A stretch of DNA of 64,000 nt from Marsupella aquatica (Eukaryota; Plantae; Marchantiophyta): assembly GCA_973895155.1 (NCBI GenBank), contig OZ316893.1, forward strand, positions 992,860 through 1,056,859, written 5' to 3'. A program made the translations under genes and the position numbers. Positions 26,101 to 58,141 of the stretch are shown piece after piece. Each line of letters opens with the position of its first letter. The stretch's first letter is position 1. Below the pieces are notes generated by a model. The model searched no databases, was not told the DNA's origin, and saw only the letters and a program-made list of their open reading frames with translations.

Positions 26101-26338
26101 GGAGGAGAAAGAACTAGCTCTTTGTGGTCATAGTGAGAAGTTGGCTATTACTTACGGACTTATGCACATTCCTCGGGGAAAACCAATTCGAATATGGAAG
26201 AATCTTCGGGTGTGTTCAGATTGCCATACCGCAACGAAGTTTATCTCGAAGGTGACTGGACGCGAGATTGTAGCCAGGGATGCCAATCGCTTTCATCATT
26301 TTAAAGATGGCATATGTTCTTGCGGCGATTACTGGTAA
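23165..26338 (+). CDS. PLS-class PPR-DYW protein (copy 2, 1057 aa)
   Basis: Intact intronless ORF. Five ALEWVK-containing ~101-aa PLS units, PG box, HSEKLA/CSDCH and terminal DYW. Confidence 0.95.
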   Translation: MTREALWVDGWSTPAWVKARANLHNHCRFQSHVSYCTRDWSQVTAQRNGSRHMHDAVTTSETISVLKDRLQRGVTIDSYTYVKALQMCLQQKDYSAAKQFHEGIIESGIEKNPYVATTLLNVYIKCGGLLDARKIFDQLQKKSVITWTNMIAGYAKSDHVESAIELFNQMRQEGVQPDEITYLSILKGCASPSALACGKEIHESIRHAGFASDVRVGTALVLMYGKCGCITEARKVFEKLTNRNVITWNVMIGAYAERGDGVEAYRLFLQMSREGFEPNAITYVSILNASASAGALEWVKEVHGHASTAGLELNSRVGNALVHIYAKSGSIDDARLVFDRMEQRDVVTWTVMIGGLAQHGRGHEAYQLFLQMRRAGFEPNAFTYASIFNASTSEGALEWVKDVHGHASKAGLDSDLRVGNALVHIYAESGSIDDARLVFDRMQHRDVVTWNVMIGGLAQHGHGVEAYRLFLQMRRKGFEPNAITYVSILNASASAGALEWVKDVHDHARKAGLLESDLRVGNALVHMYAESGSIDDARLVFDRMEKRDVVTWNVMIGGLARHGHGAEAYQRFLKMRRDGFEPNAITYLSILNASASAGALEWVKDVHGHAGKAGLESDLRVRNALVHMYAESGSIDDARLVFDRMEKRDVVTWNVMIGGLAQHGCGHEAYRLLLQMRREGFEPNAITYVSILNSSASAGALEWVKEVQGHVSKAGLESDLRVGNALVHMYAESGSIDDARLVFDRMEKRDVVTWNVMIGGLAQHGCGHEALTLFRKMNADGVKPNVYSFVAVLSACSHGGLVDDGRRLFSAMTQDYGIEPDIGHYNCMVDLLGRAGHLEEAKLFIRNMPLEPIAGTWKVLLGACRTYCNVEMGELAAKELLKSEPNDASTYVLLSNIYAAAGKWEKKSLVRTMMRKRGVRKEPGRSWIEVDKKINKFVVGDRSHAEAKAIYTELNKLTERLKAEGYVPDTRLVLHDINEEEKELALCGHSEKLAITYGLMHIPRGKPIRIWKNLRVCSDCHTATKFISKVTGREIVARDANRFHHFKDGICSCGDYW

Positions 26339-33100: not shown

Positions 33101-33885
33101 ACACCATCACCACGTTCTGCACATGCTCCAATCACAACATTCCATGTAATGACATTTCGATTGGTCAACTTTTCAAAAACTTTCCTTGCCTCGGTGATGC
33201 ACCCACATTTAGAGTACATCAGTACGAGAGCAGTCCCTACACGCACGTCCGATTCAAATCCGACCTGTCGAATATGCTCATGAATTTCTTTTCCGCATGC
33301 TAGAGCTAATGGGCTGGCACATCCTTTTAGGATGCTCAGATACGTGATCTCATTCGGCTGCACACCTTCTTGGCGCATTAGATTGAAAAGTTCGAGTGCA
33401 CATTCAGCATGATCACTGCTAGCGTATCCTGCAATCATGCTGGTCCAAGTAATAACACTCTTCTTCTCAATTTGATCAAAAACTCTACGTGCATCCGATA
33501 ATCCTCCGCATTTGATATACACATTCAACAGCGTGCTTACCACATATGGATTATTATCAATTCCACTCTCGATGATGCAACCATGAATTTGCTTGGCTGC
33601 TGAAAGATCTTTCTGATGCAAGAGCATTTGCAGAACTTTAACATAGGTGTACGAGTCTATAGCAATGCCTCGTTGTAGACGATCTTTCAAATCAGCAAGT
33701 ATTTCACTCGTGGTACCAGGAGCATGCATATGCCTACTGCCGTTCCGTTCTGCGGTGACTTGAGACCAATCTCTCGTGCAATGATCAACATCAGGTTGAA
33801 CTCTGCATTGAGTAAGCAAATTCGCCCTTGCCTTAACCCGTGCTGCAGTTGACCATCCATCCACCCAAAGTGCTATACTTGTCAT
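30109..33885 (-). CDS. PLS-class PPR-DYW protein (copy 3, 1258 aa)
   Basis: Intact intronless ORF. Seven ALEWVK-containing 101-aa units, KEPGISWIE, HSEKLA/CSDCH and terminal DYW. Confidence 0.95.
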   Translation of the reverse strand: MTSIALWVDGWSTAARVKARANLLTQCRVQPDVDHCTRDWSQVTAERNGSRHMHAPGTTSEILADLKDRLQRGIAIDSYTYVKVLQMLLHQKDLSAAKQIHGCIIESGIDNNPYVVSTLLNVYIKCGGLSDARRVFDQIEKKSVITWTSMIAGYASSDHAECALELFNLMRQEGVQPNEITYLSILKGCASPLALACGKEIHEHIRQVGFESDVRVGTALVLMYSKCGCITEARKVFEKLTNRNVITWNVVIGACAERGDGVEAYGLFVQMRREGFKPDAITYLSILNASASAGALEWVKKVHGHASKAGLESNLRVGNALVHMYAKSGSLDDARLVFDRMEKRDRVTWNVMIGGLAQHGSGHEAYRMFLEMRRQGFEPNEITYVSILNASASTGALEWVKEVHGHASKAGLESDLRVGSALVHMYTKSGSIDDARLVFNQLEKRDVVTWNTMIGGLAQHGCGHEAYRVFLQMRREGFKPDTFTYASILNASASAGALEWVKEVHGHASKAGLESDLHVGIALVHMYAKSGSIDDARLVFDRLEKRDVVIWNTMIGGLAQHGCGHEAYRVFLQMRREGFEPDAFTYVSILNASASAGALEWVKEVHGHASKAGWDSDLRVGIALVHMYAKSGSIDDARLVFDRMEKRDVITWNVMIGGLAQHGRGHEAYRMFVEMRRQGLEPNEITYVSILNASASMGALEWVKEVHGHASKAGLESDLRVGSSLVHMYTKSGSIDDARLVFDRLEKRDVVTWNTMIGGLAQHGCGHEAYRTFLEMRREGFEPDAYTYASILNASASEGALEWVKEVHGHASEAGLESDLRVGIALVHMYAKSGSIDDARLVFDRMEKRDVVTWNVMIGGLAQHGLGHEAYRLFLQMRREGFEPNAVTYASILNAPGSAGALEWVKEVHGHASRAGLESDLHVGNALVHMYAKSGSIDDAQQVFDRLGKRDVITWNTMIGGLAQHGYGREALELFRQMNVNHVKPIETSFIAVLSACSHGGLVDDGRRIFSAMTQDYGIERTVVHYNLMVDILGRAGHLEEAKQFISKMPIEPNDVTWTALLGACRTYGNVELGELAANELFKLEPGKASTYVLLSNIYAAAGNWEKVSSVRTMMQERGVRKEPGISWIEVDNTVHQFVVGDTSHPEAEAIYTELNKLSEKLKAEGYIPDTQLVLHDISEEDKELALCSHSEKLAIVYGLMHLPWGRPICISKNLRVCSDCHSATKYISKVTGREIIARDANRFHHFKDGVCSCGDYW

Positions 33886-35480
33886 CTTATACTCAGGTGC
33901 TCTGCGCTTCCTCTGTCAACCACACTGCCCAGGGTCAGACAGGGAAAGCCTGACTGATAAAAGAAAAAAGTCCAGGAGATTCCACGAGGTGCAATGAATT
34001 TGTACTTATTTCTCTAGGACTATATTTCACAATGATCTTTTTACAACGAATTGTTCTAAATTGATGACAGACCGGTTACTCTCTCGAGTCCTACGGCTAG
34101 CTTGCATGCTTACCTCCGTCCAAAGATGTGTTTTCTTGTCTCCCTGGCTCCGCTGTGATCTTTGGTACAGAAAACTTGCAAAAGTTATATGACGCCTTTT
34201 CAATTGAGAGTAACGGCTGTCTGTCAAGAATGCGATGATCTGAGAATAGACTTACTGAAATAATTGTCAAAGGCATATCCAGGTAGCTCAAGTATCAATA
34301 AGCTCGTTGATACTCCGGTATTTCAATGTAATTATAGGAAGGACAGAGTCAAGAGCCTATCGAATTGGCACTAAAAACCTTCATCAAGCAGTCACTGTTA
34401 TCCTTTGGTTCTGTATAGGATAGACTCTTAGGGCACCGTGACAGACGTTTATTTGTAAGTTGCCTACACTGTCCTTTCTATGCTATACACAAACCAACTC
34501 TCAGGTGTTTGACAAGAGACTACACCTCACAAATAAAGCCTAGTCAGCATTTGTAGATTGTCTCTATAGCATCCATTGTGATTAGGACATGAATGTGAAC
34601 GCGCCGCCCCCCGCACCCTGCCCCCCCCCCCCCCCCTCCCCCTCCCCCTCCCCGTGGTTCCTTGGAGATGAGAAAAGAATCAAACTTGAAGTTCAAGTCA
34701 AGCTTCATCACATAAGCCTCATAGCTGGAACAAGGGTTTTTGTTTACAAATAGGTAATCACAAGGTTGAATTGCTCTTCAGTCTCAATTACCTGAAAGCC
34801 TTGTACAATGGCTGATGCCAATACCAACCAAACCGGAAGATGAAGGATGAACTCTGCAAATCAAACGTCATTGTTGAGAATGTCTTCAAGCTCGTTTGGT
34901 CACATCATAATCCAACAAAATGGCATGCATACAAAATTAATCATACCTGGGTGTGGAGTTTTGCCTAAAGCGGTCCATATCCAAAATTTCCATCCAGTAA
35001 GCTTCGGTCCCGTTCGAGAGCTTAATAGTACAGTTGTGAGAAATACGATCTTACCTGTTTGACAAACGTTCAAATCAGTCTTAGTAGTGCAATCCTTGGA
35101 GAGTCCTCAAATCTCAAGTCTCATATTTCATCCCCCTTGGACTAAGGAAACAATATTCACTAGGCGAAGGCTCTGTTGGGAAAGCCTTACCCGGGCGAGG
35201 AATCTCAGCTCAACGCAACATTTGGAGGTACCCCTAGAAGCATAGCGGTAGCAGTATCGTCTCCAGGATCAAGTCCTCCGTCATTACGAATTAAGAATTG
35301 CTGTACTCTTCTAAGAATTATCACAGCTTTGGCATCCTGAGAGGAAAAAGTATGAGAATTTCAAATCCCAAAGCAACCACCACCATACCTGCACATTGTC
35401 ATTTGAAAAAGTTTGGCGCAAGTGCTCTTGTTTATCGCCCTCCACGAAAGAACCCTTTCCAACCGACTTGTCCTATATGC
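33886..35480 (-). repeat. Upstream region of copy 3, inverted paralog of 21530-23164
   Basis: For example, 35361-35465 is the diverged reverse complement of 21541-21648, and 34110-34225 matches 22826-22945 and 15180-15295. Confidence 0.85.
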
Positions 35481-37840: not shown

Positions 37841-40462
37841 CAGTCACAATAGTTAAACCTAACACCTATCAATCTCTACTCACTTGAACTATCACAAAGT
37901 CATGCCTCTCTGGGCCAGACACAAGTTTAATTAGTGATTCCTCTAGCTTTCCCCAACTCTTTAAAAAAAACCTCACCTATTTGGTTCAGTTGGGAGAAAA
38001 TGAAAAACTTTTTGTACACGGATAAGGTTGATTTGGGCTTCAACTTAGTCCCCCCATATATAATTATTAAAGGCAGAATTAATGGAGATTAATTAATTGC
38101 TACAAGGAATTTTCTTCATTTTACAAATTTGCAAGTCTCTAGTGGGACCTGTAAATATTCAAATAACATATTGAAAAATAAAATGAGGATTAAATCCATG
38201 TATTAGAAAATCAGGGTTCATTGGAAGAAATTGATAAACTTAAAATCTTACCAGTAATAAATAACCGACAGAAGGTAGAGTCGAGGTCTAGGATTCTAAA
38301 GTAAAGGTCCTAGACTCGGACTCTAGGGGCTTGCCACAACTTATGTGGATTCAACCAAAGACTGGAATGATGTTATGTATATATGATAAAATCATATCAT
38401 GCATGATTTGTCATCTGTATTAACATTCAAAGAATTGGCATCCAGGCTTGTAATTAAAAAACTTTATTATATACACAGTACTACCTAGAGCAGATTTATT
38501 AACACAACAATCTATAGCAAGTAATTCAATGACTTAGAGTGCCCATTGGTTATGTAAGTTTGATGTTATTTAACAAGTTAGAGCAAAATTGCATATTGAA
38601 ATAAGTTTGACTAATATGAAGAGGAGAGGAAAGAAAGAGTAGATTATTGATATATGATAGTAGCTACGTACTGTAGTCCAACACAACATTCAGACCCTTG
38701 GTACTCCTATGTACATACAGTTCATGTAACATTTTGCCTTGTCTCAAACACAAATAGTCATGTTTGGTTCTTTGTAGATCTAACAAACTGTTCTTGTTTG
38801 TGACCAGTAGCGGGACCAGTAGTGCTGATGTGACAACACGTGCTTCCATAGATTTTGAAAGGTCTGGAACTTTCCATCGGGTCCGTAAATAAGACAATAT
38901 AGCAAGAAGGGGTCCAGTCCTGCCACATGATCAATCTGGAAAATCCTTCAATAAGCAAAAAAATTCCAAAAATGCACAAACAAAATTCTGACAGTTGATC
39001 GAGGTTGTTTTCTAAAGTGGAGCCAGTTACTCTAAGGTGGGAGTAGTATGAGAGCAGGAGAGAAGTTGCTAAAAGACTTTTCTTACTATAAGCCTGTCTA
39101 AAAGACACAGCCCAGTGCCCTACTACACTTGCATTGCACTGAAGATATCAAATTGAGGCAAGGAAATACGAGTGCGATATATAGATTTTGAAATGCAGGT
39201 AGGAAAAGGAAATGTAAGTCAACAAAACCCTAAACAAAAGTTCTCCTTCCATGTTGTAGCACAATTTTTCTTTTATCTTCTTGTTCCCCTCCCTGCGCCC
39301 TCCCTTTCTCTCCTTTTGCTCTAGCTGGCTCCCTCCCACCTCCACTTTCTCCACTTTCTAGCCCTCCCCCCCCCAACCTGGCCTTTTCTTCCCTCCAACA
39401 TGATTTGAAGAATTAGTTCGTGGACCCCTTGGCTAATAAAATCAGGGGGAAGAGTTGATCTGAGCCGTCTCCATTTCTTATCTCCGGAAATCTCGTCCGT
39501 CCATCATAATGGCCAATCTATGGCTCAAAAGAAAGATCTCAAATAGATCTATGGATGGTTCTGTCAATTTTGCAAATGGGTTAATATTTTTCAAATGAAA
39601 AATTAAACAAATCCAAGCCTTCCTAGCCGTCAATTTTGTTGATTTTACGATCTTTGCCGTCCATTTTGTAATGCCTCTAGGAATCTTATTCATCCATGTT
39701 AGAAGGCAATCTAGGGTGCAATTAAAAGAAAGATCTCAATGAGATCTACGACTGGGTATTTTTTGTTTTGAGAATGAGTGAATAGTTTTGAGTATAAAAT
39801 TCGATGAACTTTCAAGATTCCAACCATTCCTCCTCCCCGATCCTGGGTTTCTATGTGCTCTTCCCAGCATTAATGGCCGTACAATACGAGAGGTCCTCAC
39901 ATAACGGGAGTTTCGGTTTAACAAGGAAGTTATAAAGTTAGTTATTAGTCATTATTTATTATATGAAAAATACTTTTTATAAATCTTTGAATTTAAGTTT
40001 TAAAATTATCACAGTATTCATTAAAACTGGAAATTTAAAAGTCCAGATTGTGATCCTCAAATTTACATTCTTGTCTCTAAAAAGTCCATTAATTTTTCTC
40101 CAAATAAACAATTTTTCAAGACTAAATATACACTCTTTTTGGTTTAAAATTACACTTTTGCACTCCAAATTTGATTTTAATCAATTAATCATAATACAGA
40201 AATTATTAATATTAATTGTATTTGAAATTAAATAGATAACTGACAAACATGTATCATTTGGTCAAAAACTCATGATTAAATTCAAAGTGAGATTAATCAT
40301 CTCATTTATCATAACATATATTCAAGGTTGGCTAGCCATAATGTCGATCCTACTCCAATGGTCAAGCTAGTGTAAAGTCCAAAGTAGTTCTATGACCTGT
40401 GAAATAGAAAAATGATTGCATGACTCCAATCTTGTGTCCTACAATGTACAGAAACATAATGA

Positions 40463-43400
40463 TTAATCATCTAAAATTTCAAATTCTATGCCTCCATGAA
40501 TATGTCTACATGACTGATTTGAACAAGTGAGTCGCTCTCCATTTGGGTCATATAGTCTGTCACGAGTGCAAGTGTCTTTGGGATAACGGTTTTTAAACTT
40601 AGAGGTGAGATCCCTAGTCTTTAGAACTTCCCAGACAAATCGGCGAGGATTTTCTCTGAAGGGACCTGCATAAGACTCGCCCAAACAGTTGTTGACCACA
40701 TCTTTCATATCATCTTCGGTCAGGTTCTCAAATGTAGGGTAGGATTGTACCATATCCCTCACTTCCCAACATATCTCATCTCCAGTGACATCCAAGATGG
40801 TATACTCAATCTTGGAACGCCAAATCTTACTTCCCCACTTATGGGAAAGTAAATCATAGATTGCAGCATTACTTTCACGGTCATCATTTATATTAACAAA
40901 TGACCAAAGTGGATTGTTGACAGATATATATTGTCGGATGTCATAAGCCTTCCACAATTTTCTAAGGAATGGCCAAAGTATCTCTGGTAGAAAAGTGTCA
41001 CTCTCGGCAATGTGTGAGAAGGGAGTTGGGAACAAACCACTATACTGTGGATTTGCAAAAGCCTTCACTGGAGAGTCATCAATAAGTAGAGTGTTTGTAT
41101 CATCATACTTGTCTCCAAAACGACTCCACACCACACGCAAATCCTTCAACATAATATTTGCTTTCCCATCTGCTACGTCCGGTCTTTTTATGCCAGTATC
41201 AAAAGCATCTTCTTGTGTGAAAACAAATTTAAATTGCCTCCGCTCCTCTTCTTTGAAAATCAAATTCATCATTTCATTAGTTCTTGGCCTCCCCGCACAA
41301 GTCCACAATGCGACATCAAAACCTTTGAAAGCCACCTCCAAAAATTGGTGCAACCTTGGCCTTTCCACGTACATGAAATTGAATCCACCCCGTCTCCCCC
41401 AATGCACACCCCGCACAGTTGTTGTAGATCTTAACGGTCCCGAGCTTTTTGTTTTGACGCAATCCCAACAAATTTTGTTCAGGTCCAAAATCAAGAGTTT
41501 TCTTCTTATATCAGAGTGCAATTTAGGAGTGAAATCTGCAAAGATCCAAATGAATCAAAATTATATCTAAAAGATATAAAAGAAGAACTTAGGGTCGAAC
41601 CTGGATCGACCCGACCTAATGGGGAAAACAAACATATCATTTTTGAATGTCAAAGCATTTTGATATATCAATGTAGAAGTACCTTGCTCAAATGCTTTGT
41701 CTTGGACCAGGGTACCGCTTGCTGAAGGTAGACCAATAATATCCTTCGATGGAAGAGATGCTATGACAAAACTCTGGTCTGTCCATATATGATTTCCAAA
41801 CATAATATTTTAGATTATTGTGAAAAATAGAAGAACGAAACCATAATATTAACCTCCACTACTAAATGACCCATATTCATCTATCATGTTATCACCTAGA
41901 TCACTTTGGATATCAGAATTGACGCCAACAGGAAGCTGCTCCACCAACGTTGGCGGCGCAAACACTGGACTCAATCTCAATTTGTCTATTATGTAATCAG
42001 GTTTGACCATTAACTTAGGCGCATCCTCCAACGTTTCTTTCAATCCAACTTTAGGTCCATTTCTCCAAATGAAATGAGTTGCATGACGGACTGTCTTCAT
42101 ATATCCTGTTCTACCTATCTCAGATCCAGACTTTTGAGACAAGCGTAATATTATGGGGCTTCCGCTTGACATCCTTGTGAAGACCAATTTATTCCCTGAC
42201 GAACAAAATTGAGGAGACTCGGAACAAGTTGAAGCACCTGCCTCTTCAGCTTCAACATTTGTTGTCTCTCCAAGTGGAAGGTTGTCTTCAATCGCTTCTG
42301 CAATACCAACTTGTAGGTCCGTGGTGGGTGTAGTGGCCCCAATATTCTGCCAACCTGCATCCAATGTGCACGATACCTGCGGTCTCTCGGGATGCAATTT
42401 TGATACTTCAGGGTTGAGAGGATTTGATGGAGGGTCGCTCTCAGGGCGACCCGACATCACTATGTCGAGTTGAGGTAGCCCTTCAACACCGTAGGTAGTA
42501 ATGCCAACCATTTCTGTTGCTCGAGCATCCCAATTTCCGCCAAAATCCTCCTCTACCATAGGACTTGAACCTCCATCATCATGCTGCAACTCACCATCCT
42601 CAAGGTCAACTCGCTGAGGGCCCGGTTGGGGGTTGTCCATAGGCCCGCAAAGAACACTTAGATGAGCTCTCCTAGGACCATGTACTCCCATCCGCTCTTT
42701 CATAAGGGAGGGAATCCTGTTGCACAAAACCCTTGCATATGCTTGGGTGAAATGGTGTTCTTGCAAAGTGTCTGAATAGACAAAACAATCTCGGTATGCC
42801 AACAAGGCCACCTTCAAAACCTGCCCTCCTGAAAAAAAATCGAGGACAGTCTCCCCCTCACCGGAAAAACATTCAATAATATTTTTGAGCATGTGTCGGG
42901 GCTTGGCATGCGGATTGACAAATCTTCCTCGACTTCCGACCATCTCAAACATTGGAGCTTGCCGCAATAAATCTGCCATATCAAATGCGGGAGACTGCTC
43001 CTCTGTCTCATTCTCTTTTCCCTTGCTTTTCTCTTGCTTGTCAGCCTTCACTTCAATATTGAAATCACAGTCAACATCGGGGTGAAAACTAAATTTTGAA
43101 TTGAACTCTGGCTTAAACAATTGATTCCAATCAAAATTGTCTTCACCTGTAATTCCAGCAAAAATGACCTGCTCAATCGCTCCTGTAAAAATTAAGCCCT
43201 GCGGATTTGGGCGATCTTCCCGATCATAACTCCCGTATTCAACATGGATGGCCAAATGCTTTTCATGTCCTAATTTCCTTAGGGCACTTAAGATGTTGGC
43301 TGGAAGTGGCCCTGGATGAGTAGTCATGACAACACAATGGTTGTATTCCTTGGCAACTCCACAATATATTGGAGCAATACAAAAATTTCCGAATCTGTCC

Positions 43401-46400
43401 ATTCATGTTGTCGTGCCCTACTAAAATCAACAATTGCAAGTGGACACATTGGCGTCGCCTCTTCCAATAACTCTGGCGTGGTTGTCTTCATTAGATTCTC
43501 ACTGAAGAACGTCAAGAAAGGCTCTGTTCATGTGCGCCCAACTCCACCAAATTGTTTGTAGTACAACCCGTCTAATCTCACCATTAGACTTTGAGGGAAA
43601 GCCTCTTTCACAATGTTCTTCCTTAATAAACTGCTAAGGTAGACCTCCCCAGCTGCTCTTCGCAATTTTGTCAGCTCAAGTTGAGATCCCAAGGCCGGCA
43701 TGATGTTGACCACCGAAGCCCACGATGTCCCCCCGGGAAAATTCTCCTTGTGCTTCTCAACAAAGTACTCAACAATGACTTGCTTCAATTTAGTCATTAC
43801 CTTGATGGTATGAGCCATATCTGGCATTGACACTAGATCCATCTTGTTGGAGGCATCTTTCTTGAGAAGTGCTTTCTTCTCATAAACCGCGGTCAATATA
43901 TCAATGATATCCTTAGAACTGATCTCCCCTTCAAAACATCTAAAAAGAGTTGGCGTGACCAGCTTTAGTGGCCGCGGCCCACCATACTCTCCTGCCCCGC
44001 CAGGGAGCTTCCCTGCCAACCAATCCCAACAAACAGTTTGCCATAAATGGAAAAGCTTATCCTCAGCAAAGAGCAACCAAAAAATGGCTTTCAAGCTCGA
44101 CTTTCCCATTGTTATCTTTGCGAGGGCAAACCAATCCTGCATTTACATTCATCCACCAAAAAACATGTTAGATGTTTAAACTTAGAAACTTCAACTTCTC
44201 TGCCTCGCCCCTAGAGCGAGGCGAAGAAAATGACAAAGCCATATGAAAATGGTTGGGGCAATCATTGTATTCATCATTCAATTTCATTTGGGTCACTCTA
44301 AGAGCGAGGCAAAATTAAACTACAGTTCCAACTAATGAAAATGTTTACCTGGTATTTCTGGTTGTCTGTACTTTGGTTTGTTCCAATTTCTGGACGCGGT
44401 GGTTTCCCACATTCATCAAATTGCCTTCTCGCATGAACAACTGTCTCTAGAAAACAAGACTTAAACTGCATGGTCTGATTTACTGCATTTGAAAGGCTCG
44501 AGTGCTCGACCAAAATTGCCCTTGGAGTGAGGTCTGATAAGATCCTCGCTTTCCGATATTGGAGTTTGCTAGCAAGATCAGTTAGCTTGGCATCCTTGTC
44601 TGCCCACCCTTGAATCCATTGTGCAGCCTTTGCGGAATGTTGCCCACTGATTGCAAGAAATTGTATCTCTTGCTTCTTAACACCAAACAAAAATTGCTTC
44701 CGATCGCGTGCGGTATTGTCAAAATGTAACAACTGCTTAGTGCGCTCTAGAAATGGAATCAAATCTGCAACATGTGGTTCCTGGCCAGGGTTTTTCATCA
44801 TTGATTTTGCTATCTCTAAGGCATGAGCCTGGTTGAACATCCGATACACAAAAACTGCAGTAGGCGGAATAATACTTTTAACCGGGATTTCAAAAACCTC
44901 CCTGATTCCAAAAGTGTAGTATTGCTCGATGTTCCGCAAAGCTTTCTGCCCCTCCAATACATCTCGTTCCTCTGGTGCATCTGTTGGGCATGTATCATCC
45001 TCCGGATCCAAGACCAACCTTGCTTTTGACGCTGACACGGGCTTTGATTTCCCAATCTTGGCCTTCTTCTTGGGCTTCTTGTCGGAGTCCTTATCTTTCT
45101 TCTTCAACGCCGCCTTTTTTCCTCTAGTACTTCCTTCACTCCTTGGCTCTCTTTGTTTTCTCTTCTTCTGTGTTTCAGCCGACGTCATTTCTTTGGCCTT
45201 CATCTTCATCTTCCCCTTACCTCGATGCTTTTCTTCCTTCTTCTTTTGAGTTGAAATCCACTTCATGCAAGCATCTTCGTCAAACTCATCAGAGAAAATA
45301 AAACTCTTATCAATTGCTTGCTCATATGAAAAGCGTGCTGTTTCAATCATCCTCTGGACAACCCATGTGTTAGGAAGATCTATAAGGTCCGGATGATCAT
45401 GCATGTACCGCTTCACAGAGAGGAATCCAAAGACAACATCAACCCCACTCAATTTGAATCTTCCATGCCTCTCAAGAACATCCTCTGCAGTGAACCCATC
45501 TGGAAGAAATCCCATTGAACAAATACTAGCCTCCGAGCGTGCTATCCACTCCACGTTGATAATTGACGAGTACATCTTGATTGGCAAGTAAAGTCTCATC
45601 CACTGAGATCTTTCTCTGGATTCAATAATGATTGTAACATTGCGGTTATCACTGCAATTTACAAGGACCACAGGGCCCAACGCAACTATCTTCTTGTCGT
45701 TCATTGTCTTAGCAGTGATTGCCTTGATACAAATCATCGACAAGTCATTCTCCATGATCCCTACTTCAAGTGCCCACGAAAATCCTGCCTTATCTTGTCC
45801 AGGGAAAATAAAGTCCTTGACATCCTCGGCCATAATATTTAACTCTGGGGATCCAAGTTGTTCTCCTGGAAAAACAAATTGAAACGACAAACATTAAAGC
45901 AAGAGATCTTTTGTGTTGCCTTGCCCCTAGAGCGAGCTGGAGACAAGGTCTGCATCAACAAACATGTGGGTTGGGTCGCTCCTGGAGCGACCCTAGGAAA
46001 TCTTAAATCAAGGTCCAACCAACAACAAATTTGGGTCGCTCCTGGAGCGACCCTAGGAAAACTTAAATCAAGGTCCAACCGACAAATAAGTTGGGTCGCT
46101 CCAAGAGCGACCCTAGGAAAACTTAAATCAAGGTCCAACCAACAACAAAGTTGGGTCGCTCCTGGAGCGACCCTAGGAAAACTTAAATCAACGTCCAACC
46201 AACAACAAAGTTGGGTCGCTCCTGGAGCGACCCTAGGAAAACTTAAATCAACGTCCAACCAACAACAAAGTTGGGTCGCTCCTGGAGCGACCCTAGGAAA
46301 ACTTAAATCAACATCCAACCAATAACAACGACAAATCTTAGGCAAGATAGGGTCGCTCTAAGAGCGACCCTTCAAAGACTAACTTGCATCAATTGTTGAA

Positions 46401-46579
46401 TCATACTTACGTGGAACTGTGATATGAAATCCTCTTGAGGCGGCCAAAGCGGATTCCACCGACATCTTTAGTAAAGTGTCTTGAGAATCATACTCAAAGA
46501 TTTTACTAGAATCAAAGTTCAGGGACTGCCCAGAACTAGAAGTGCTAGTAGAATCATCAGAACTAGAGGAAGTAGCCAT
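40463..46579 (-). pseudogene. 5-exon ~1,720-codon fusion gene: ParB-like domain, amino-methyltransferase-like domain, FCP1/SCP(NIF) HAD phosphatase-like domain, Cys/His tail
   Basis: Exons 46579-46384, 45865-44349, 44136-41854, 41778-41683, 41535-40463 join by GT-AG introns in matching phases (1,0,1,1). Motifs: IPVKSI..RMFNQAHALEIAKSM..FLAISGQHSAKA (ParB-like); NPHAKPRHMLKNIIECFSGEGETVLDFFSGG (MTase motif X/I); KLLILDLN..RPRLHQFL..VALWT..NTLLIDDSPVKA (NIF). One TGA at 43528-43530 and one frameshift near 43350. Confidence 0.78.
45971..46371. repeat. 6 x 60-bp tandem array, each unit with palindrome GGGTCGCTCC-T-GGAGCGACCC, plus a 7th palindrome at 46349-46371
   Basis: Units start at 45971, 46031, 46091, 46151, 46211 and 46271. 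The third has the variant CGCTCCAAGAGCG. The array lies entirely within predicted intron 45866-46383. Confidence 0.95.
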
Positions 46580-47626
46580 TGAAAAATGCCTCACAAACGT
46601 TTAGATGACACGTGGCAGCCTAGTATACAAGAACGCCTATATAGCTAGACCACACCACGGAGCGAGGCTACAGAGCAAGGAAAAAAATCTACTATGAGCA
46701 AGGCAAAATCAACAGAGCGAGGCAAGAAAATCTACTATGAGCGAGGCAAGAGGGAGGAGGGAAACCAGGGCAGCCGGGCAAGAAGACAATGAAGGAGGAG
46801 ATGGATGCAAGAAGACAATGAGGCAAATGAGGTAATGTCTTTGCCTTTTGCCTTCCTATACCCTCACTGCCACGGCCGATCCTACGCCACGGCCGATCGT
46901 ACGCGACCTTACGCAACCCAGCCACTTGCTCCCTTCCACGCGCCTGTGAACTCGCAACCCTCATAATGACCTAGCTGTACGGGTATCCATAGATTTTGAA
47001 AAATGATGCACGGTCGTACGGGTGTCCACAGAATGCCGATCAGAGTAATCAGACTTTCGGCCTCTCGATGTTGTGAACCCCTTCAGGACAAACTTGGCTA
47101 AAGCTTGCTCACAAATGGTATAAAGCTCTATAGTTCCAATCATTTCTCTCTTTTGTATGGCGCGTGCGTTTCTGGTCATTGCTCACTCTCGGTCTCGCCC
47201 TTCGGCCCTTGTCTATCTTGCTTCTGTTCGGTGACTGATTCGACTGACTTGGACATTTATGGTTACAAGAGTTCGTGCAAGGAAAGTCCTGTTTCAAGTA
47301 CATATTGCATTAGTTTTGGTGTCCTTGGTTGGCGACACGTCTTCTATAGTCCTTAAGAGAGGTATTACTTCATCTACCATTCTCTTAATTTCTTCTCTAT
47401 GATATCCACCAAATATTTGGCCCTAGCTTTATCTTAATATATGGACCTAACTAAGCCCTAGATAATGTAGGGTTCCTAACGACACACTCGTCTACCCACA
47501 CGTCTACACACTTCAATGGTCTAATTCAGCTTAATCATTCCCCTGATTTATTCATTTCCATATTTTCTCTTTTCCTTCACAATTCTTGCTTCTCCAGGAT
47601 TGTGCTCGTCTTTTCTTGCTCTCCCG

Positions 47627-48056
47627 TTGCCTCGCTCCAAGAGCGTCATGCCCTTGCCTCGCTCCAAGAGCGTCACACACTTACCTTTCATCAGGAGCAT
47701 CCTGCCCTTTCTTTTCTCCAAGGGCATCCGCTCTCCATTTCCTCGCCATCAGAGCGTCCCACAACCGCCTCGCCCCTAGAGCGACCCTCCATCGCCTAGC
47801 CCCTAGAGTGGCCCTCATTCACCTTGCCCCTAGAGTGTCTCTCCATCGCCTCGCCCCTAGAGCGACCCTCATTCACCTTGCCCCTAGAGCGTCCCTCCAT
47901 CGCCTCGCCTCTAGAGCGACCCTCCATCTCCTCGCCCCTAGAGCGACCCTCCATCGCCTGCCCCTAGAGCGACCCTCCATCGCCTCGCCCCTAGAGCGTC
48001 CCTCAATCGCCTCGCCCCTAGAGCGTCGCAACCTTGCCTCGCTCCAAGAGCGTCCT
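47627..48056. repeat. ~27-bp tandem array (cgcctcgcccctagagcgaccctccat and variants)
   Basis: About 11 consecutive units at 47766-48030, plus CGCTCCAAGAGCG copies at ~47632, ~47660 and ~48040. Located upstream of the transposase ATG. Confidence 0.92.
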
Positions 48057-48234
48057 TGACCTTAGAATCCTGTTGTGTAAAGCCAATACACATAAACTCC
48101 CAAATATTTTTTTCCTTTAAATAGAATTCAAATGTTTAGATCTAATATTGTAATATCTAGAGTAGTGCTTATCAGTATGCACATCAGCTGAACAATTTTT
48201 AAATGTTTTTGGATGCAGAGATTCTTTCGCTACC

Positions 48235-51200
48235 ATGAGTAAATTTATGCGAGGGGATGAAGTTTCATTGATAATTGATGGTTTTGAAGTGGCAATTGGG
48301 ACCATCCAAAAGGTTGATCCCAAAGACACTATACACAATATTTGTCTTGGGAAAAATTGAATTGGGGTCCTTATCGAGAGGTGTCTTGAAACATCTTGTC
48401 CACTACCATTTCCATCCAAAACATCATCGAGCCTAGGTGATGCAGTTGACTCGTGTGTGATCTGGGATTCTTCCTTGGCATATTTGAGGTCTTCAACATT
48501 GCCGAAAAGAACCGCTGTGGATGGTGTTCCTACTCCAGTGGACGGGGATGAAGGATGTTTCGAAATGGATGTTGGTGGTAAAGGAGGCAACCTTGCTGAA
48601 GGAGAGGAGGTTGAGATGTTCATTTTAGATGAACTTGTATCAAAAGGAGTTGTCTTCAATACCAATCCAATGGACACTTGTCATAGTGAACGACTCGGTG
48701 TTGGTCGTGTCAGTATACAAATATCAGAGGTTGTTCAGGGAAATAGAAAACTACCATATCCGCATCTTGGAGCTGACACAGTGCAAGAGGCAATGCAGAC
48801 TTGGGTAATGTGGGATGTTGCTGATGTTTCAAGAAAAGGCTCTATTCGAGGTTCTGGCATGTTTGTTGGTGCAAACCCGGGTGCAAACCTGTTTAAGGAT
48901 CTTCCATTGAAAGATTTTACAATGCGTTCCAACTGGATGGCAGAGGAAGTTGACTTGTATGATGTTTCTCGTTGTCGTAAGGTTGCGACAGGAGTTATCA
49001 CAGTTCCTTTTGAAGCAGGTGCTGTTGATGATGAACTTCTTGGTCCAGAGCATGTGGGTGTAGCTGTTGTGAATATCAACGATCCCGCATTATTTCCAAA
49101 TATCCGTGCTGGTACTCCAGGTTTGGTGAGGTGGGAAATCAAATCTTTGTTGTTGATTTCATCTCAAATATTTCTCGGGGATATCCTTGAGAAAGGTTCA
49201 CATGTGTGGATAGAATCGGGTCGAAATGAGAGCGACCCGGATTTGGATGGTGATGGGAAACCTCCAAAAAGACCTTATAATTTCATTAGAAGGACCAAAG
49301 TGGATCTGGAGGAGAAAAAAAATAAAATTTGCAATCAAGGGCGCTTTTGAAAATCACCGAGGAGTCCATTGATTCCATCCAAAGAGAAGGTTGTTGCAGG
49401 TTAAAGTGTTGCTTGAACATGCCAAGAGAGGACTTGGAGGCAATGAGGAGGGAATTTCATGGAATGTCAAGTGACAACAAAACAAGTCATATCTTCAATC
49501 TTTTTGGGTGTAGAGAAGACCAAGTCAAGAGAAAAGGATTTTTTGTTCTAAAGGGACGTGTGGTTTGTAAGGATGCGTTCATAAAAATGCATGGGTTTAG
49601 TACGGCAAAGTATTATGATTACAAAAATCAGTACGAAGCTGGGTGCACAATTGGTTTCCATGGAAATCAAGGGCAACATAAGACACGATCAAGCACCTTG
49701 CATGCTCGTGCATTGTTGGAGTCCATTTTAATCCAAAATGGAGAACCAATGCCACATCTTCCCTATGGTGGGTCCAACGGCACCGATACTGTCAAATATC
49801 GACTCCCATCATGTTTCACTAAGAAGGAGATTTTTCAAGAGGTATTTGCAAAGATGGAATTGGACGGCTATGCTAAGGTTACTGAAGTTACCATGTACAA
49901 CATCTGGAAAAATTCTTTTGATAATTTTGACTTTCACAAGGGCAGTGCATTTGCCAAGTGCACATTTTGCACTGAGTTCAAAGATCAATTGATGCGGGAG
50001 AAGAGAAAAAAAGAGCGTGCAGAGATTGAAGAGAAAAGAGCACGACATCTTCGTGAACAAATGTCAAGGAGATATGTTTACTATGCTCATAGGGTTCTTG
50101 CAAAGAAGGATCCTCAAAACTATCTTTGCATTATTCATGATAAGATGGACCAAGCCAAGACTTGGATCCCCAGATTGGTCCCCACTCCAAAATCTCTCTC
50201 TGGTAGTGGTCAACCTCTGCCCATTGCCCTTACTGGGATGTTAACCCATGGAAGGGATCCAGGAGTGTATGCACACTTTAGTTTGACTGGCCTTTGGCCT
50301 GGAGATGCAGACTTCACTGTGACATCTTTGGCCAAATGCCTTCAAGATTTGGAGGATTACACTGGAGACAAAACGGGAGACATGCTTGAAGCTTTCAATT
50401 GGAACGCAACTAGGCCAATATTTCAGTCTCTTTTGGACTTTGAAGCATTTCAAGCGGGTTACTTGGAACCCAAAAATGTTTCAATTCTCAAGTTTCAAGG
50501 CCTTGATGACGGTCAGGAGAGCCAAAAAACCAGCACAACAGATGCTGGTTCTAGAGTTGATCCTGAGACTACGAGCTCTTTCAAGCCCTTACCAAGGCAC
50601 CTAACACTGCAGATGGACAATTCAGGAAAAGATAATAAAAATCAATATGTGATGGCATTTTGCAGCGAGCTTGTTAGCAGGGGGTGTTTGAAACTGTGCA
50701 AATGTCATTCCTCATAGTTGGCCACACCCATGAGGATGTGGATGCACTATTTCTCAAGTATCCAAACAGGTCAGGTACAAAGAGGTTGCTACCCTCCTTG
50801 CGTTGATGGCTGAGGTTTGGGAGTGTGAAAGCATCCATCCTGTACGTACCACGATTGATTCAGGAGGTTGCATCTTACAAGCACTATTTGAAGGCTTTCC
50901 AAGTGAAAGAGATTGAAGGTCACTCAAAACCAATGGCATTTCTATTCTCCATGAGGGATAATGTGCCAGTGTATCAATATAAAGCACATGTCAAACAACC
51001 TTGGCTTCCAGCAACAGGGAGGTCAATTTGGAGAACTGATCTCATCACAAACACGCTCATTTTACCGGAGGGCCAACCATTTGCAAAACCTATATCGGGG
51101 GAGGTACAAAAGAAAGTCGAGGAAATCATCCCATTCCTTAATCGTTACATTGATTTCTTGAGGAAAAGTTGCAAGGATGAGACCTCTACAGCATACCGCG

Positions 51201-52018
51201 AGAGATTTCCTTTGGTGAAATATTGGGAGAGGCTTGTTATGGCACTCTCTGAGGCACTTACAATAGAAGGGGAGGGAGAAAGACAATTGTCATTGACAAC
51301 TGATTTCTGGCCAAAGACTAACCATGGCACAGGTTACAAGGTGATTTTGGGGACCTCTCAACCTTCAAGTGAACCTACTCAAAATTCAGAGATGATGGAC
51401 CTTCAAAATGAGTACATGGAAGAGATGGAAGGTCAAGCTGCACCCTTCGTTGGTGCACAAGAAGAGCGAGAACTTGCACGTTGGATTTCCCTACAAGATA
51501 TTCAAGAGGGTCACTTTGTGTTTTTACGTCCAGAGGATGAATGGGAGCAAAAAAATGGCAAAGGGCGTTTCTGGTTAGTTCGAGCTTTGGGTGGTGTGGA
51601 TCCAAACCATGAGGTTTCTTCACTAGATTTGCAATTTAGTGAAGGGTCTTCTTCAAGGTTTTCTAAGAGCATTCACCTAAGTAGCATTCCTAAGTGGTAT
51701 GCTCCTATGTTCCAAGTGCAATGGTGGAGGCCTAAACATGGTAAGCATGATGCAAAGGATGATGTTCGATACGAACGTTGCTTTCAGACCACTAAGACTT
51801 GGGAGCTAGATCCTGGGTTTAACACTATCACTCAAAGTTGGCAATTTGCAAATTCTGCAATGTATGGATTTAAGTCAGGTGCCAAAGAACAAAATATTAT
51901 GGATAGAGGTTTGACAATTCCCAAGAATGTTTTGAAAACTCTCAAAACTTACATGGAAGGTATTGATGAGAGTGATAGAGTGGTCACAAGTGTCCACTAT
52001 GTAATGACTTGTAGGTAG
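48235..52018 (+). pseudogene. DDE transposase (Sola/DUF7869-like) with three N-terminal Tnp1/En-Spm-like domains; disrupted
   Basis: ATG 48235 is in frame with ORF 48457-49350, with a TGA at 48358. Cys clusters CCRLKCC, VCKDAF and KCTFC. Catalytic-type motifs IIHDKMDQ, LQMDNSGKDNKN and (frameshifted, ~50700-50750) SFLIVGHTHEDVDALF. Frameshifts at ~49330, ~50680, ~50752 and ~50845. Confidence 0.8.
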
Positions 52019-52697
52019 GAGGGTCAAGTTAATTTCCATGCATTTGTCTAAAGTAAGTGAGAGAACAAGGCTTGCAATCAAATACTCTATGATCTTTCTT
52101 AGTTATTGAATGGACTTTTTCATAAAAATTGTTATTTTTGTCTTAGTACATATATTTCTAGAAAATGATGGCAGTTCTAAGTTACTTGGATGTCATCCTA
52201 GTTTGAATATAAGATATTTAACTTGTCTAGCATTTCATTGTTGCTTAGATAATGATCCTATCCAAGCTAGATGCTTTGAGTATAGATGCTATCCAAGCTT
52301 ATGTGTTATTACACACGTTCTATCTATTTTCAACCAAATGAACACTTTTTATCACCCAAATGTTTTTTAATATTATCCAAATTAATATTTTCTTTGCCCA
52401 AATGTCTATTTTTTTGCCCCAAATTTATAATTCATGATGCTTAAATTTTCATTTTTCATCCTTCAAATTTACAATTCTTATGCCTAAAAGTGTGTTTTTA
52501 AATGCCCAAATTTCCAAATCTTCTTTATAATTCCACTTTTAATGAATATAGTGATAATTGGAAATGTAACTAAAACGGTTACATATAGTGATAGTTTTAA
52601 CCGTCTTGCTCTTTGCATTTCCAATGTTTTTACTTTTATTTTTATGGCACAGCGTCCCAAAGTTTACACCCAAATTGACACAAACACGAATATCAAT

Positions 52698-53028
52698 CTA
52701 TTCATTAAAAGTGAATTATTATTCAATTTGTGAACATTTGGGCAATAGAAAGTGTACATTTGGCTTTCAAAAAGTAAACATTTGGGCAAGAAATAAAGGT
52801 GATGGCCATCAGACATACCACCATGTTCATCTTTTATAAATGAACTAGGATGAGACTCCTTCTAGTAAAGATCATTTTTTCTCTCTCAAGTTTACAATTG
52901 ACTATTTAGGTGTAGAGTATTGTACTATAATATACCTTTTGGGGTTAAAAAGTGTACATTTAGAGACCAAAAAGTGTACATTTCAAGGCCTAAAAGTGAA
53001 CAAAATAAAATACACTTTTAATGAATAG
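52698..53028. mobile_element. MITE with 16-bp TIR CTATTCATTAAAAGTG (copy 1)
   Basis: Perfect inverted ends. A second homologous copy lies at 62932-63240. Confidence 0.8.
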
Positions 53029-53313
53029 GGTGATGAATGGAAACTATAAGTTTGATTCACAAAACCGCCGAGTCTTGTTTGTTGCGGTTGTTGTTGACGT
53101 GGCACGTTGTGGTGCCAGGAATTTTGGAAGGGACCTCTAGTGGGGTCCGTAAAAAAAATTGGAGGAAAAAGCAGAATTAATAACCCAAAGGAACAAGAGA
53201 ATTCCACTTTAGAAAATAAATAGCAAACTTAGGCCAAATAGTGCCCCCCCAACAAAAAAAAAGTCTCTAACTTACACGATGTACTTCTTATGTAGGGGCT
53301 CCAAGTATTGGTC

Positions 53314-56156: not shown

Positions 56157-57461
56157 CTACCTGGCAATGCTTTTCAACACCAATACTTCGACTGTCACAC
56201 CAGGCCCGAATGCCACACAAATTCCCCACTCAGCTCCTTGCCCAGATGTCGTCGAGTTGTTCTGAACAGACAGGTTCCGCACTTGGTCAAGCACAAACAG
56301 AACAGTGGCACCAGACATGTTACCATAGTTATAAAGCACATCCCTGGTGGCCTTCAGCTTCTCGGGCTTCAAACTTAGTGACTTCTCCATTTCATCGAGG
56401 ATGGCCCGACCTCCGGGGTGTACTGCCCAGAAGATGTCGTTCCAGCCAGGAGACCCGGTCATTTGAGATTGAGCAGCATTGAAGATGGGCAGCGTATTCT
56501 TTGAAATGATGCCGGGAACTTCCTTCACTAAATGATACATGAGGCCAGCTTCTGTGAGGCGCCCTTTGATTGCACCATCACTTTCGGGAAGGATAGTTTC
56601 TCCTGACCAGTGGATTTCGTAGAGTGGCCTCTCGACCTCGAGCGGGTCCGAGCCGATGACTAGTGCTGAGGATCCGTCGCCAAACGTTGCAGACCCAACC
56701 AAGTTGTCCACATGCTGCTCAGTAGGGGCCCTAAAGGTGAGACACGTCGTGAGTTCACTCACCACCGTCAGAACTCGTGCGCCCTTGTTATTCTCAGCCA
56801 AATCTTTAGCTACTCGCAGAACTGTGGCTCCTCCGAAGCACCCTTGCTGATACAGCATAGTTCGCTTGACATTGGGATTCAACCCAAGGAGTCTGGTGAG
56901 AGTGAGATCTGCTCCAGGCATGTTGACACCACTGGTAGCTGCCAATACAACGTGAGTAATCTGCTCTCTGGGTTGGCCCCATTCTTCGAGAGCCTCCTCC
57001 GCTGCCTTTGCTGCAAGCCTGGGTACCTCTTTAATGGCAATGTCCTGGCGAACGTCGAGGGTATCACAATTTAGAATCATTTCTCTCACCTCAATAGATA
57101 GAAGACTCAAAAACGTTGTTCGAGTGATTTCACACATTTGAAATCTAGGAGATAACAAAGATTGAAAATTAAGAGCCATGAAGTACACCTGGCGAACATC
57201 GAGAGAAGCATCCTTGTACGTACACATCGCTGGATTGGCCTTCAGCACCTCCTCGGTGCAATGAAAGTACCTCTGGTTGATCCCTGCGTTTTTGCAGATA
57301 CGGGCGAACTTCGCCTTGAGCGCAGTCTTCTCATTGCAATTCGTGATGTTGAAGAAGAAATCCGCGTACTCGCTCTGAGGATGAGCGGTGGGAGGAACAG
57401 CTTTGCCAATGGCGAACACGGTGGCCGGCCCTTCCGCTCTCTGATGCCGATACGCAGCCAT
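56157..57461 (-). CDS. Type III polyketide synthase, chalcone synthase family; 2 exons (57461-57189, 57044-56157)
   Basis: RAEGPATV, catalytic triad contexts MLYQQGCFGG / WAVHPGG / YGNMS, FGDG and AFGPG. A 144-bp GT-AG intron spans 57188-57045. Confidence 0.93.
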   Translation of the reverse strand: MAAYRHQRAEGPATVFAIGKAVPPTAHPQSEYADFFFNITNCNEKTALKAKFARICKNAGINQRYFHCTEEVLKANPAMCTYKDASLDVRQVYFMALNFQSLLSPRFQMCEITRTTFLSLLSIEVREMILNCDTLDVRQDIAIKEVPRLAAKAAEEALEEWGQPREQITHVVLAATSGVNMPGADLTLTRLLGLNPNVKRTMLYQQGCFGGATVLRVAKDLAENNKGARVLTVVSELTTCLTFRAPTEQHVDNLVGSATFGDGSSALVIGSDPLEVERPLYEIHWSGETILPESDGAIKGRLTEAGLMYHLVKEVPGIISKNTLPIFNAAQSQMTGSPGWNDIFWAVHPGGRAILDEMEKSLSLKPEKLKATRDVLYNYGNMSGATVLFVLDQVRNLSVQNNSTTSGQGAEWGICVAFGPGVTVEVLVLKSIAR

Positions 57462-58141
57462 TTCTCGATGAACAGACTGAAGTGTCAGCAATCGCTTCTG
57501 AGAATCTCAATGCAGTCCAGAGATTTGGCACTTCTAAGCTCTCTAGAAACGAAAATCGCGGATTCTACAATGGAGGTGATGGATCAGATACTTTGTGGAC
57601 GAGGAGGCTAATGATGGACTTGAAATTTGCCAAAAACCTTCAGCTGAGTAGAATGAAGCCCGGAGATAACTTTGGGTATACCCAAAGTAAACTTGAGTTG
57701 TGAACTATGGTCTAATCAAACTCTAGGTGAAAAAACTTTATAAGCATGGGTTAGCAGGTGAGTTTAGGCAAACTTTAAGTAAGTGCTGTAAGTTGAATAT
57801 TATTGACTGATTAAACAAACATCAGGCAAAATTGCCTTTCTATAATGCATACTCTGACTAACTGCACGAAGTGCATCCACTTCTTCCATTTTCGTGGAGT
57901 TTGCACTTTTCGTCTGTGCAAAAGGCCAAAAACTAAACAAGAACTATATAAGTGCAACCCTCCATAAGTTGCCACCACTTATTGGTAAGCGCACCATTCC
58001 ATCAACTATTTACACTTATTATTACTAACTAAGTGGCATTAAAAATTGCACATGGGGTAGGAGATCATGTTTACGGCGAATATATACAGTTTAGGGTGGG
58101 TTCCACTAGAATGTTCACTGTTAGCCGGGGCATTACACATG

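Follow-up and report, generated by a model that had tools for sequence, protein, structure and literature searches.

In plant DNA transposons of the En/Spm (CACTA) type, a short motif is reiterated in the subterminal repeats and is bound by TNPA, a protein other than the transposase that takes part in both positive and negative regulation (PMC2613891). Self-control and the evasion of silencing are best modelled by transposons that carry arrays of their own cis sites together with an accessory protein, with En/Spm and its TNPA as the classic example. Here we describe arrays of a palindromic motif within a DNA transposon of the liverwort Marsupella aquatica, which lies in a stretch of 64,000 nucleotides of contig OZ316893.1 (assembly GCA_973895155.1, positions 992,860 to 1,056,859, forward strand). 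This whole stretch is referred to as the window and all positions are counted from its first letter. As in En/Spm, the short motif is reiterated in direct and inverted orientation within the element and is distinct from the terminal repeats, and by analogy TNPA with its reiterated motifs may be regarded as the nearest known system in function. The two differ in that the arrays here are central, around two divergent gene starts and in 5' introns, instead of subterminal, that the intron-1 sites form a 9-3-9 palindrome, that the transposase is of DUF7869 type and not tnp2, and that the reader of the motif is putative.

The sites may also be compared with parS, which is read by a centrally placed helix-turn-helix (HTH) domain of ParB, and with the operators of RK2 KorB. 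A parS is 13-16 bp long, and one parS sits within a parB gene. The liverwort element resembles these systems in having multiple palindromic sites, several of them near promoters, on an element that encodes a protein with a predicted ParB fold, and the N-terminal domains of KorB and ParB are structural matches to that protein. It differs in its eukaryotic host, in the 21-bp length of its sites and in their tandem arrangement; furthermore, no HTH domain and, among the scanned ORFs, no ParA were found, and the protein has a GQHS box and not GxxR. KorB itself is described as a CTP clamp (PMC13229309).

Two further systems share single features with the locus. The fusions of a ParB fold with an N6_N4 methyltransferase (MTase) in phages are alike in that a mobile element carries a ParB/sulfiredoxin (Srx) fold with an MTase-like module behind it (PMC12704722), and the same domain order was observed in P0065, a relative from Riccia. 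The plant family differs from them in that it escapes the Pfam ParB model and that its MTase match is below threshold with no catalytic motif seen, and the available part of that source describes no cis site for the phage fusions. The other is miR820 in rice CACTA elements, a hairpin-forming sequence inside a plant DNA transposon (PMC3459959), to which the 21-bp stems predicted here for two-unit segments may be likened; the Rfam score here, 23.9 bits, is far under the threshold of 196 bits, and no captured host-gene fragment is evident.

What sets the locus apart is the occurrence of central palindromic arrays in a family whose accessory gene appears to join a ParB/Srx fold to an MTase-like module. 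A literature search for DUF7869 returned no publication, and nothing relevant in print was seen among the matches listed for a combination of ParB, methyltransferase and transposon in eukaryotes. A 2025 survey of the ParB-CTPase fold gives sulfiredoxin as its usual eukaryotic member (PMC12704722); this survey would miss the plant family because its search was based on Pfam.

Structure of the intron-1 array

The 60-bp array is located in the predicted first intron of the gene for the ParB-fold protein (Table 1), directly upstream of the main coding exon and on the minus-strand side of a block of two genes. Tandem Repeats Finder (TRF) reported it in the window with a period of 60, 6.0 copies and 94% matches. 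The pattern GGGTCGCTC-N3-GAGCGACCC was found to have seven exact matches, where 0.00 were expected from 100 dinucleotide-preserving shuffles; six of them are the array units, starting at 45973, 46033, 46093, 46153, 46213 and 46273, and the seventh starts at 46350. The core CGCTC-N3-GAGCG occurs ten times in the 64-kb window versus 0.01 expected. Of the six array units, five have CTG at the centre and are thereby perfect 10-1-10 palindromes, and the unit at 46093 has CAA, so that the intron-1 palindrome takes the form 9-3-9 or 10-1-10. A preliminary description, made by a model from the letters alone, had reported six palindromic units with an additional palindrome and near-identical A-rich linkers at 45866-46383. 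The letters of the window agree with this account, and the TRF result, the seven exact matches and the linkers, in which 11 of 234 cells differ, all bear it out.

With the six units placed in register, none of the 108 arm cells deviates as against the 11 linker cells (Fisher p 0.02), and by columns the count is 0 of 18 in the arms versus 9 of 39 in the linkers (p 0.045). Units 4 and 5 are identical in sequence. The retention of CpGs in the palindromes, also noticed at that earlier stage, is real: not one of the 14 CpGs in the seven intron-1 palindromes has been lost, against 22 of 32 retained in this copy's 27-bp array (p 0.02). Changes of CpG to CpA or TpG were observed in two of the five lone half-sites and in the arm at 44290. 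Hypomethylation, selection or a younger array could each be the cause of this retention, and recent tandem amplification is a possible cause because of the identity of units 4 and 5.

The intron itself is predicted from its signals and would contain the whole array. These consist of a donor CAC/GTAAGT (46411/46410), a polypyrimidine tract and an acceptor TTCCAG/GAGAAC ending at 45866, and the frame across the predicted junction runs into an open reading frame (ORF) of 531 codons. If translation starts at a Met inside exon 2, the array would instead be part of the 5' leader or the promoter. Intron 2 is confirmed by the annotated spliced relative P0011, which is continuous across the same junction.

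Half-sites across the element

Two half-sites recur in the element, A (GAGCGACCC) and B (GAGCGAGGC). Scans for A-type and B-type palindromes with up to three mismatches, the latter with the pattern GCCTCGCYC-N3-GAGCGAGGC, gave 13 and 16 matches respectively, all of them between 41592 and 49238 and within the element, leaving the remaining ~51 kb of the window without a match. Likewise, GAGCGACC was counted 13 times within the element and GAGCGAGG five times, and neither occurs elsewhere in the window. The half-sites pair in a modular way, with A-A in intron 1, B-B at 44202, A'-B at 44290 and B-A in the 27-bp array. In addition, five lone B half-sites (46650-46747) are found 70-170 bp upstream of the ATG of the ParB-fold gene, and the 27-bp array is located 175-635 bp upstream of the transposase ATG. 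There are thus arrays of three periods (60, 27 and 23-24 bp) with differing linkers and a common half-site family around two divergent gene starts. None of the motif copies is subterminal, and the main arrays (45.9-48.1 kb) are 5-7 kb away from either end. The palindromes had been placed altogether inside intron 1 in the preliminary description; this holds for the 60-bp array, given the predicted intron, and not for the motif as such, which is also found in the intergenic arrays and in intron 2.

As single-stranded DNA, each array palindrome folds into a 9-bp stem of -10.8 kcal/mol and the seventh palindrome has a fold of -11.5 kcal/mol, whereas the hybrid half-site units of the 27-bp array are poor in self-pairing (-2.5 kcal/mol, z -1.3). 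Since the hybrid units barely pair with themselves, the feature common to the arrays is the half-site sequence and not hairpin potential. Covariation that would preserve a hairpin (GGG...CCC versus GCC...GGC) was considered and dropped, hybrid pairings and lone half-sites being present.

Table 1. Features of the transposon and its motif copies in the window
Feature	Position	Strand	Evidence
Host DNA transposon, ~13.1 kb	39974..53064 (approximate boundaries)	.	inverted and subterminal repeats, end alignment
60-bp x 6 tandem array; unit of 21-bp palindrome and 39-bp A-rich linker	45970..46328	.	TRF
Six exact palindromes GGGTCGCTC-N3-GAGCGACCC	45973..46293	.	exact pattern match
Seventh palindrome, 23 bp, perfect, AGGGTCGCTCT-A-AGAGCGACCCT	46349..46371	.	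extends the exact match at 46350
Decayed B-type motif copy GCCTTGCCCCTAGAGCGAGCT, inside intron 1	45918..45938	.	match with 3 mismatches
23-24-bp tandem array, five lone same-orientation half-sites GAGC(G/A)AGGC	46650..46751	+	TRF, sequence
27-bp tandem array, ~16 units GCCTCGCCC-CTA-GAGCG(A/T)CCC-TCCATC	47602..48062	.	TRF and repeat search
Intron-2 motif copy (B-B) GCCTCGCCCCTAGAGCGAGGC	44202-44222	.	sequence
Intron-2 motif copy (A'-B) GGGTCACTCTAAGAGCGAGGC	44290-44310	.	sequence
Single motif copy GGGTCGCTCTCAGGGCGACCC in MTase-like ORF; frame reads SGRPESDP	42432..42452	.	
Degenerate motif copy GGGTCGAAATGAGAGCGACCC in transposase ORF; frame reads SGRNESDP	49218..49238	.	
Degenerate motif copy GGGTCGAACCTGGATCGACCC, between ORFs	41592..41612	.	
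Predicted exon 1, ATG 46580, Ser-rich, 57 aa	46411..46580	-	ORF 46379-46600
Predicted intron 1, 545 nt, GT..AG, phase 1	45866..46410	-	splice signals and frame continuity
Exon 2: PH-like N-terminal domain, Lys-rich linker, ParB/Srx-fold domain	44349..45865	-	
Intron 2, 212 nt, two motif copies	44137..44348	-	junction ...KYQ/DW... matched by spliced relative P0011
DUF7869 transposase gene, decayed here	48236..52018	+	Pfam DUF7869, 57.9 bits

The two motif copies at 42432 and 49218 are inside ORFs on opposite strands, and both read S-G-R-x-E-S-D-P in frame, within poorly conserved linker regions of the MTase-like and transposase proteins. A 17-bp tandem duplication (GCCACGGCCGATCCTAC, 2.1 copies) was also noticed at 46869-46904 in the intergenic region and bears no relation to the palindrome motif.

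Retention of the palindrome in other copies

Parts of the stretch are contained in six public sequencing runs, and the copies compared here are Logan contigs from four of these runs, representing three organisms. The most informative is a contig of 1703 nt from run X6, which begins in the upstream region, includes exon 1 and the intron, and reaches exon 2. In the exon parts, 36 of 520 and 19 of 290 positions differ from those of the window (6.6-6.9% diverged), with exon 1 at about 93% identity. In the intron of this contig, the 24-mer at 46090-46113 is found without a difference at record positions 921-944, 974-997 and 1024-1047, and a 96-nt piece (801-896) contains two more palindromes, where all eight listed differences fall in the 39-nt linker 46114-46152. 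The 24-mer is exact at five regularly spaced places in this copy. Elsewhere in the contig a different linker of 26 nt replaces the 39-nt linker of the window, and the spacing is 47-60 bp. One palindrome unit of the contig was observed to be opposite in orientation to its neighbours, its asymmetric centre being TTG in one direction and CAA in the other.

In run X5, a contig carries two copies that are exact and separated by 62 nt, and six differences are listed for the piece made up of one copy and the 30 nt beside it. For intron 2, position 44295 in the left arm of the palindrome is A in the window and G, the canonical base, in every aligned contig from the four runs. Diverged copies thus keep the palindrome exact while their linkers differ. 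The chance that a neutral 24-mer stays exact is 0.18-0.19 at a divergence of 6.6-6.9% and 0.005 at 20%, which is the divergence of the linkers. The case for the palindrome as the conserved part of the intron, judged from these contigs, is real but not overwhelming. Absence of the motif from related elements had been named at the outset as an observation that would speak against binding sites; it is not absent from close relatives, because diverged copies keep the palindromes while the linkers change.

The ParB-fold protein

An exhaustive HMMER search recovered 97 representative relatives of the exon-2 protein, 61 of them at E <= 1e-10, and a word-index search found no longer proteins related to the ORF. 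Sequence searches were silent on its fold: no ParB, DndB or HTH model matched in Pfam, NCBIfam or PADLOC, and neither phmmer nor a profile search with the ORF gave a match in the PDB. The fold is visible only from the predicted structure. An AlphaFold2 model of ORF residues 290-514, built with 50 aligned rows, has a predicted local distance difference test score (pLDDT) of 91.2 and a predicted template modelling score (pTM) of 0.85, and each of its top Foldseek matches is a ParB, Noc, PadC, sulfiredoxin or KorB, albeit only at E >= 1e-3. Through this modelled domain, Myxococcus xanthus (M. xanthus) ParB was matched with Z 10.1 and a root mean square deviation of 2.3 A over 95 residues, and twelve chains of ParB, Noc, PadC and KorB gave Z 8.0-10.1. 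Model residues 43-185 are placed on ParB residues 37-132, which is the N-terminal CTPase-type domain only. On the strength of the model, the assignment of a ParB/Srx N-domain fold to the gene that hosts the array holds.

A near-invariant box, G128-Q129-H130-S131, follows the strand 122-125 in the 50 aligned relatives and is not GxxR; it was equated with Box II by its position between strand and helix, not by a residue-level superposition. The P-motif of the ParB-fold nucleoside triphosphate (NTP) binders is GxxR, and mutation of its Arg abolished NTP binding (PMC12704722). The name ParB-like gene given in the preliminary description is therefore appropriate for the predicted N-domain fold (Z 10.1, pLDDT 91) and finds no support beyond it, as no HTH was found, the box is GQHS and there is no match in Pfam, NCBIfam or PADLOC. 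Its view of the palindromes as parS-like sites in the bacterial style was not supported, in that no HTH reader, no GxxR and, among the scanned ORFs, no ParA were seen and the arrays extend beyond the intron. As for a separate candidate, locus L001 from a search with an 11-row alignment was rejected as a relative since it offers a match of only 33 residues, given as 21 by the search itself, on a contig of 68% GC.

Interpretation of the arrays

We consider the three arrays to be, with a likelihood somewhat short of even, clusters of sites bound by a sequence-specific DNA-binding protein, probably a dimer, under whose control the transcription or the chromatin state of the element would stand. 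The finding is thus best described as transposon-internal arrays of likely protein-binding sites in a family with a ParB-fold accessory gene. A dimeric protein would read the half-sites by their six-base cores, which are three bases apart, and when bound at the arrays, which lie beside the two start codons and occupy the first introns, it could act on transcription or chromatin. A DNA motif read by a protein is favoured over a signal of structure only because the cores are 3 bp apart, the half-sites pair freely and also occur as lone copies, and the hybrids are weak in self-pairing. Control of transcription or chromatin is favoured over synapsis of the ends because the arrays are at gene starts and in first introns, far from ends that have repeats of their own. 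Moreover, promoter-proximal operator or enhancer sites fit better than partition sites since two more arrays are intergenic. The reader may be encoded by the element itself, and its regulatory effect might be activation, autoregulation or anti-silencing. Should a protein of the element itself turn out to read the palindromes, this would be a compact and testable self-recognition system of a eukaryotic transposon.

Several observations weigh against binding sites under selection, and many of them are shared with the possibility that the arrays are a neutral minisatellite, in which replication slippage expanded a unit that has no function and that owes its uniformity to recent amplification or gene conversion. 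The window's copy of the transposon is dead, so that selection on that copy is no explanation for the intact state of its palindromes. In a low-depth contig of run X2 the arms carry mutations (46097 C>T, 46046 A>G and 46106 A>G), and mutated palindromes in other copies are under-counted because the method places only window-like sequence. In the 60-bp array, contigs of other copies skip stretches of 97, 156, 192, 216 or 405 bp, and one diverged copy has 42 letters where the window has 314 bp of the 27-bp array and 89 other letters instead of the region of the lone half-sites. Such wide variation in array size is ordinary minisatellite behaviour, the units being head-to-tail and of 10-100 bp with a copy number that varies between copies. 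That units of a single copy are identical may be due to amplification in the recent past or to homogenisation, as the identical units 4 and 5 and the 94% uniformity of the array would suggest, and the statistics within the window are modest (p 0.02-0.05). A functionless minisatellite, which would make this an ordinary finding, nevertheless seems unlikely, if still a serious contender: the same half-site is common to three arrays that differ in period and linker, diverged copies have kept the 24-mer unchanged in arrays rebuilt with different linkers and spacings, and single motifs are also present in intron 2, with the canonical form in every other copy. Equally improbable, and to be taken just as seriously, is an action at the RNA level, where neighbouring palindromes would pair into hairpins with 21-bp stems that resemble microRNA (miRNA) precursors and are diced, either as a trigger of host silencing or as a regulator borne by the element. 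The intron RNA has a predicted fold of -224 kcal/mol versus -156 +/- 6.5 for shuffles (z -10.4), and two-unit segments of 96 nt form, on either strand, a 21-bp stem with a 5-bp extension (-45 to -51 kcal/mol, z -6.6 to -7.7). The palindrome is exactly 21 nt long and miR820 in rice CACTA elements is a precedent for a transposon-borne miRNA (PMC3459959). However, Rfam gave only sub-threshold look-alikes with 21-24 bits against gathering scores of 55-196, a palindromic small RNA would have no obvious distinct target, and the motif is carried by intergenic lone direct half-sites and by poorly self-pairing hybrids which cannot form such stems. The 5-bp extension of the stem comes from the linkers (AACUU/AAGUU) and is available to any two neighbouring palindromes in 46085-46300.

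Under the favoured interpretation of protein-binding sites, the identity of the reader is a separate matter. The ParB-fold protein is one candidate, as modelled, and the palindromes could be its loading or operator sites, with a possible action through the fused MTase-like module; this we hold to be doubtful. Its N-domain fold (Z 8.0-10.1 with the twelve chains), its top Foldseek matches, which all belong to the ParB/Srx family, and the presence of multi-copy palindromic sites near gene starts of a mobile element are consistent with such a role, and fusions of ParB fold and N6_N4 MTase are enriched in phages (PMC12704722), where DNA-modifying enzymes are activated by ParB-like proteins (PMC13229309). 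The structural match, however, extends no further than ParB residue ~132 and so does not reach the parS-reading HTH, and no HTH model matched; the GQHS box is without the Box II Arg whose loss abolished NTP binding (PMC12704722), the Pfam, NCBIfam and PADLOC models are silent, the scanned ORFs include no ParA-like one, and the MTase-like match (25 bits, below 26.7) covers the S-adenosylmethionine (AdoMet) half only with no (D/S/N)PP(Y/F) seen. The remaining domains speak no more clearly for a reader. The N-terminal 226 residues are modelled with a pLDDT of 89.2 and have PH/FERM-F3-like matches at Z <= 5.1 only, which may be just a common arrangement in the model; Foldseek gave no match for this domain at E <= 0.001 and ESM Atlas no usable one. 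For the exon-3 domain, ESM Atlas offered a DUF4007 look-alike (0.94) with a recognition score of 1654, below the guide value of 2300 and hence a lead only, and phmmer found no match in the PDB. None of the proteins considered showed a recognisable domain for sequence-specific binding to DNA, and no DNA-reading domain was found in the modelled parts of the ParB-fold protein. A still bolder proposal, to which we assign a slim likelihood, is that land-plant transposons captured a phage-type module of ParB fold and MTase-like domain, whose ParB-fold protein would load on arrays of its own 21-bp recognition palindrome, placed at the element's gene starts, and mark or shield the chromatin of the element; if true, this would be a eukaryotic, transposon-borne counterpart of the self-recognition systems of ParB with parS or KorB with its operators. 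It is very improbable that the units are an unrelated satellite, a miniature inverted-repeat transposable element (MITE) or a repeat like a Helitron end that was inserted in the element. Although the units are short and self-complementary and a GC-rich hairpin followed by CTAG resembles Helitron 3' ends, no copy was found outside the element in the window, searches for two palindromes 20-50 bp apart in metagenome contigs and for a single palindrome in viral contigs gave 0 matches each, no target site duplications (TSDs) or terminal repeats flank the units in the window sequence, and diverged copies from three organisms carry the motif in that very intron. An unrelated satellite or MITE was the other outcome named beforehand as contrary to binding sites, and the same searches bear on it. 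Overall the preliminary description is partly supported: its proposal of sites for an element-encoded protein agrees with a motif that is specific to the element in the window and kept in diverged copies, while the part that points to a ParB-fold reader found no direct support.

The host element and its surroundings

The ends of the element are A/T-rich inverted and subterminal repeats (ATCACnnTATTCATTAAAA and AAATGTACACTTTTT) that are unrelated to the GC-rich palindrome. They span 39999-40170 and 52334-53034, with inverted repeat pairs at 39999-40039/52524-52564 and 40124-40169/52938-52983, and no TSD was identified for the ~13-kb element. The transposase has 13 relatives of 815-1334 aa with 39-51% identity, of which seven are from the liverwort Riccia sorocarpa. 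Compared with P0098, an uninterrupted relative, the gene in the window carries an in-frame TGA (48358-48360) and frame changes at ~49330 and 50717-50807; judged by these lesions this copy of the transposon is dead. The TGA at 48358 corresponds to an Arg in P0098, which fits decay from CGA to TGA.

The minus-strand side, with the ParB-fold gene, continues into a weak N6_N4-MTase-like ORF (25 bits; Pfam cut-off 26.7) and a NIF-phosphatase-like ORF (58 bits). The MTase-like match covers just the AdoMet-binding half (HAKP...VLDFFSGG) and is located at 43324-43527 and 41849-43402 in the window. A (D/S/N)PP(Y/F) catalytic motif was not seen in the ORFs or frames of the window or in the Riccia relative P0065, and from its sequence the module may be an inactive or a highly divergent methyltransferase. 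A frame change was noticed in this region at 43402-43528. Pfam reported only DUF7869, NIF and the weak N6_N4_Mtase among the eight large ORFs of 40463-50717; no ParA-like ORF was found among these eight, small ORFs lying outside the scan, and the ORF at 50807-52018 matched no Pfam family. The combination of a DUF7869 transposase, a gene with ParB/Srx fold and weak N6_N4-MTase-like module and a NIF/CTD-phosphatase-like ORF is an unusual one. Protein relatives of the element were found in the liverwort genomes of Riccia sorocarpa and Calypogeia fissa.

The window is land-plant DNA. Its genes include three of PPR-DYW type and one for chalcone synthase, and copia fragments are also present. The three large, intronless PPR-E-DYW genes are located within 22 kb at 12100-15099 (-), 23129-26338 (+) and 30109-33915 (-). 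Clusters of such genes are typical of plants with heavy organellar RNA editing. The chalcone/stilbene synthase ORF was observed at 56157-57506 (-), and copia-type reverse-transcriptase fragments at 228-2125 (+).

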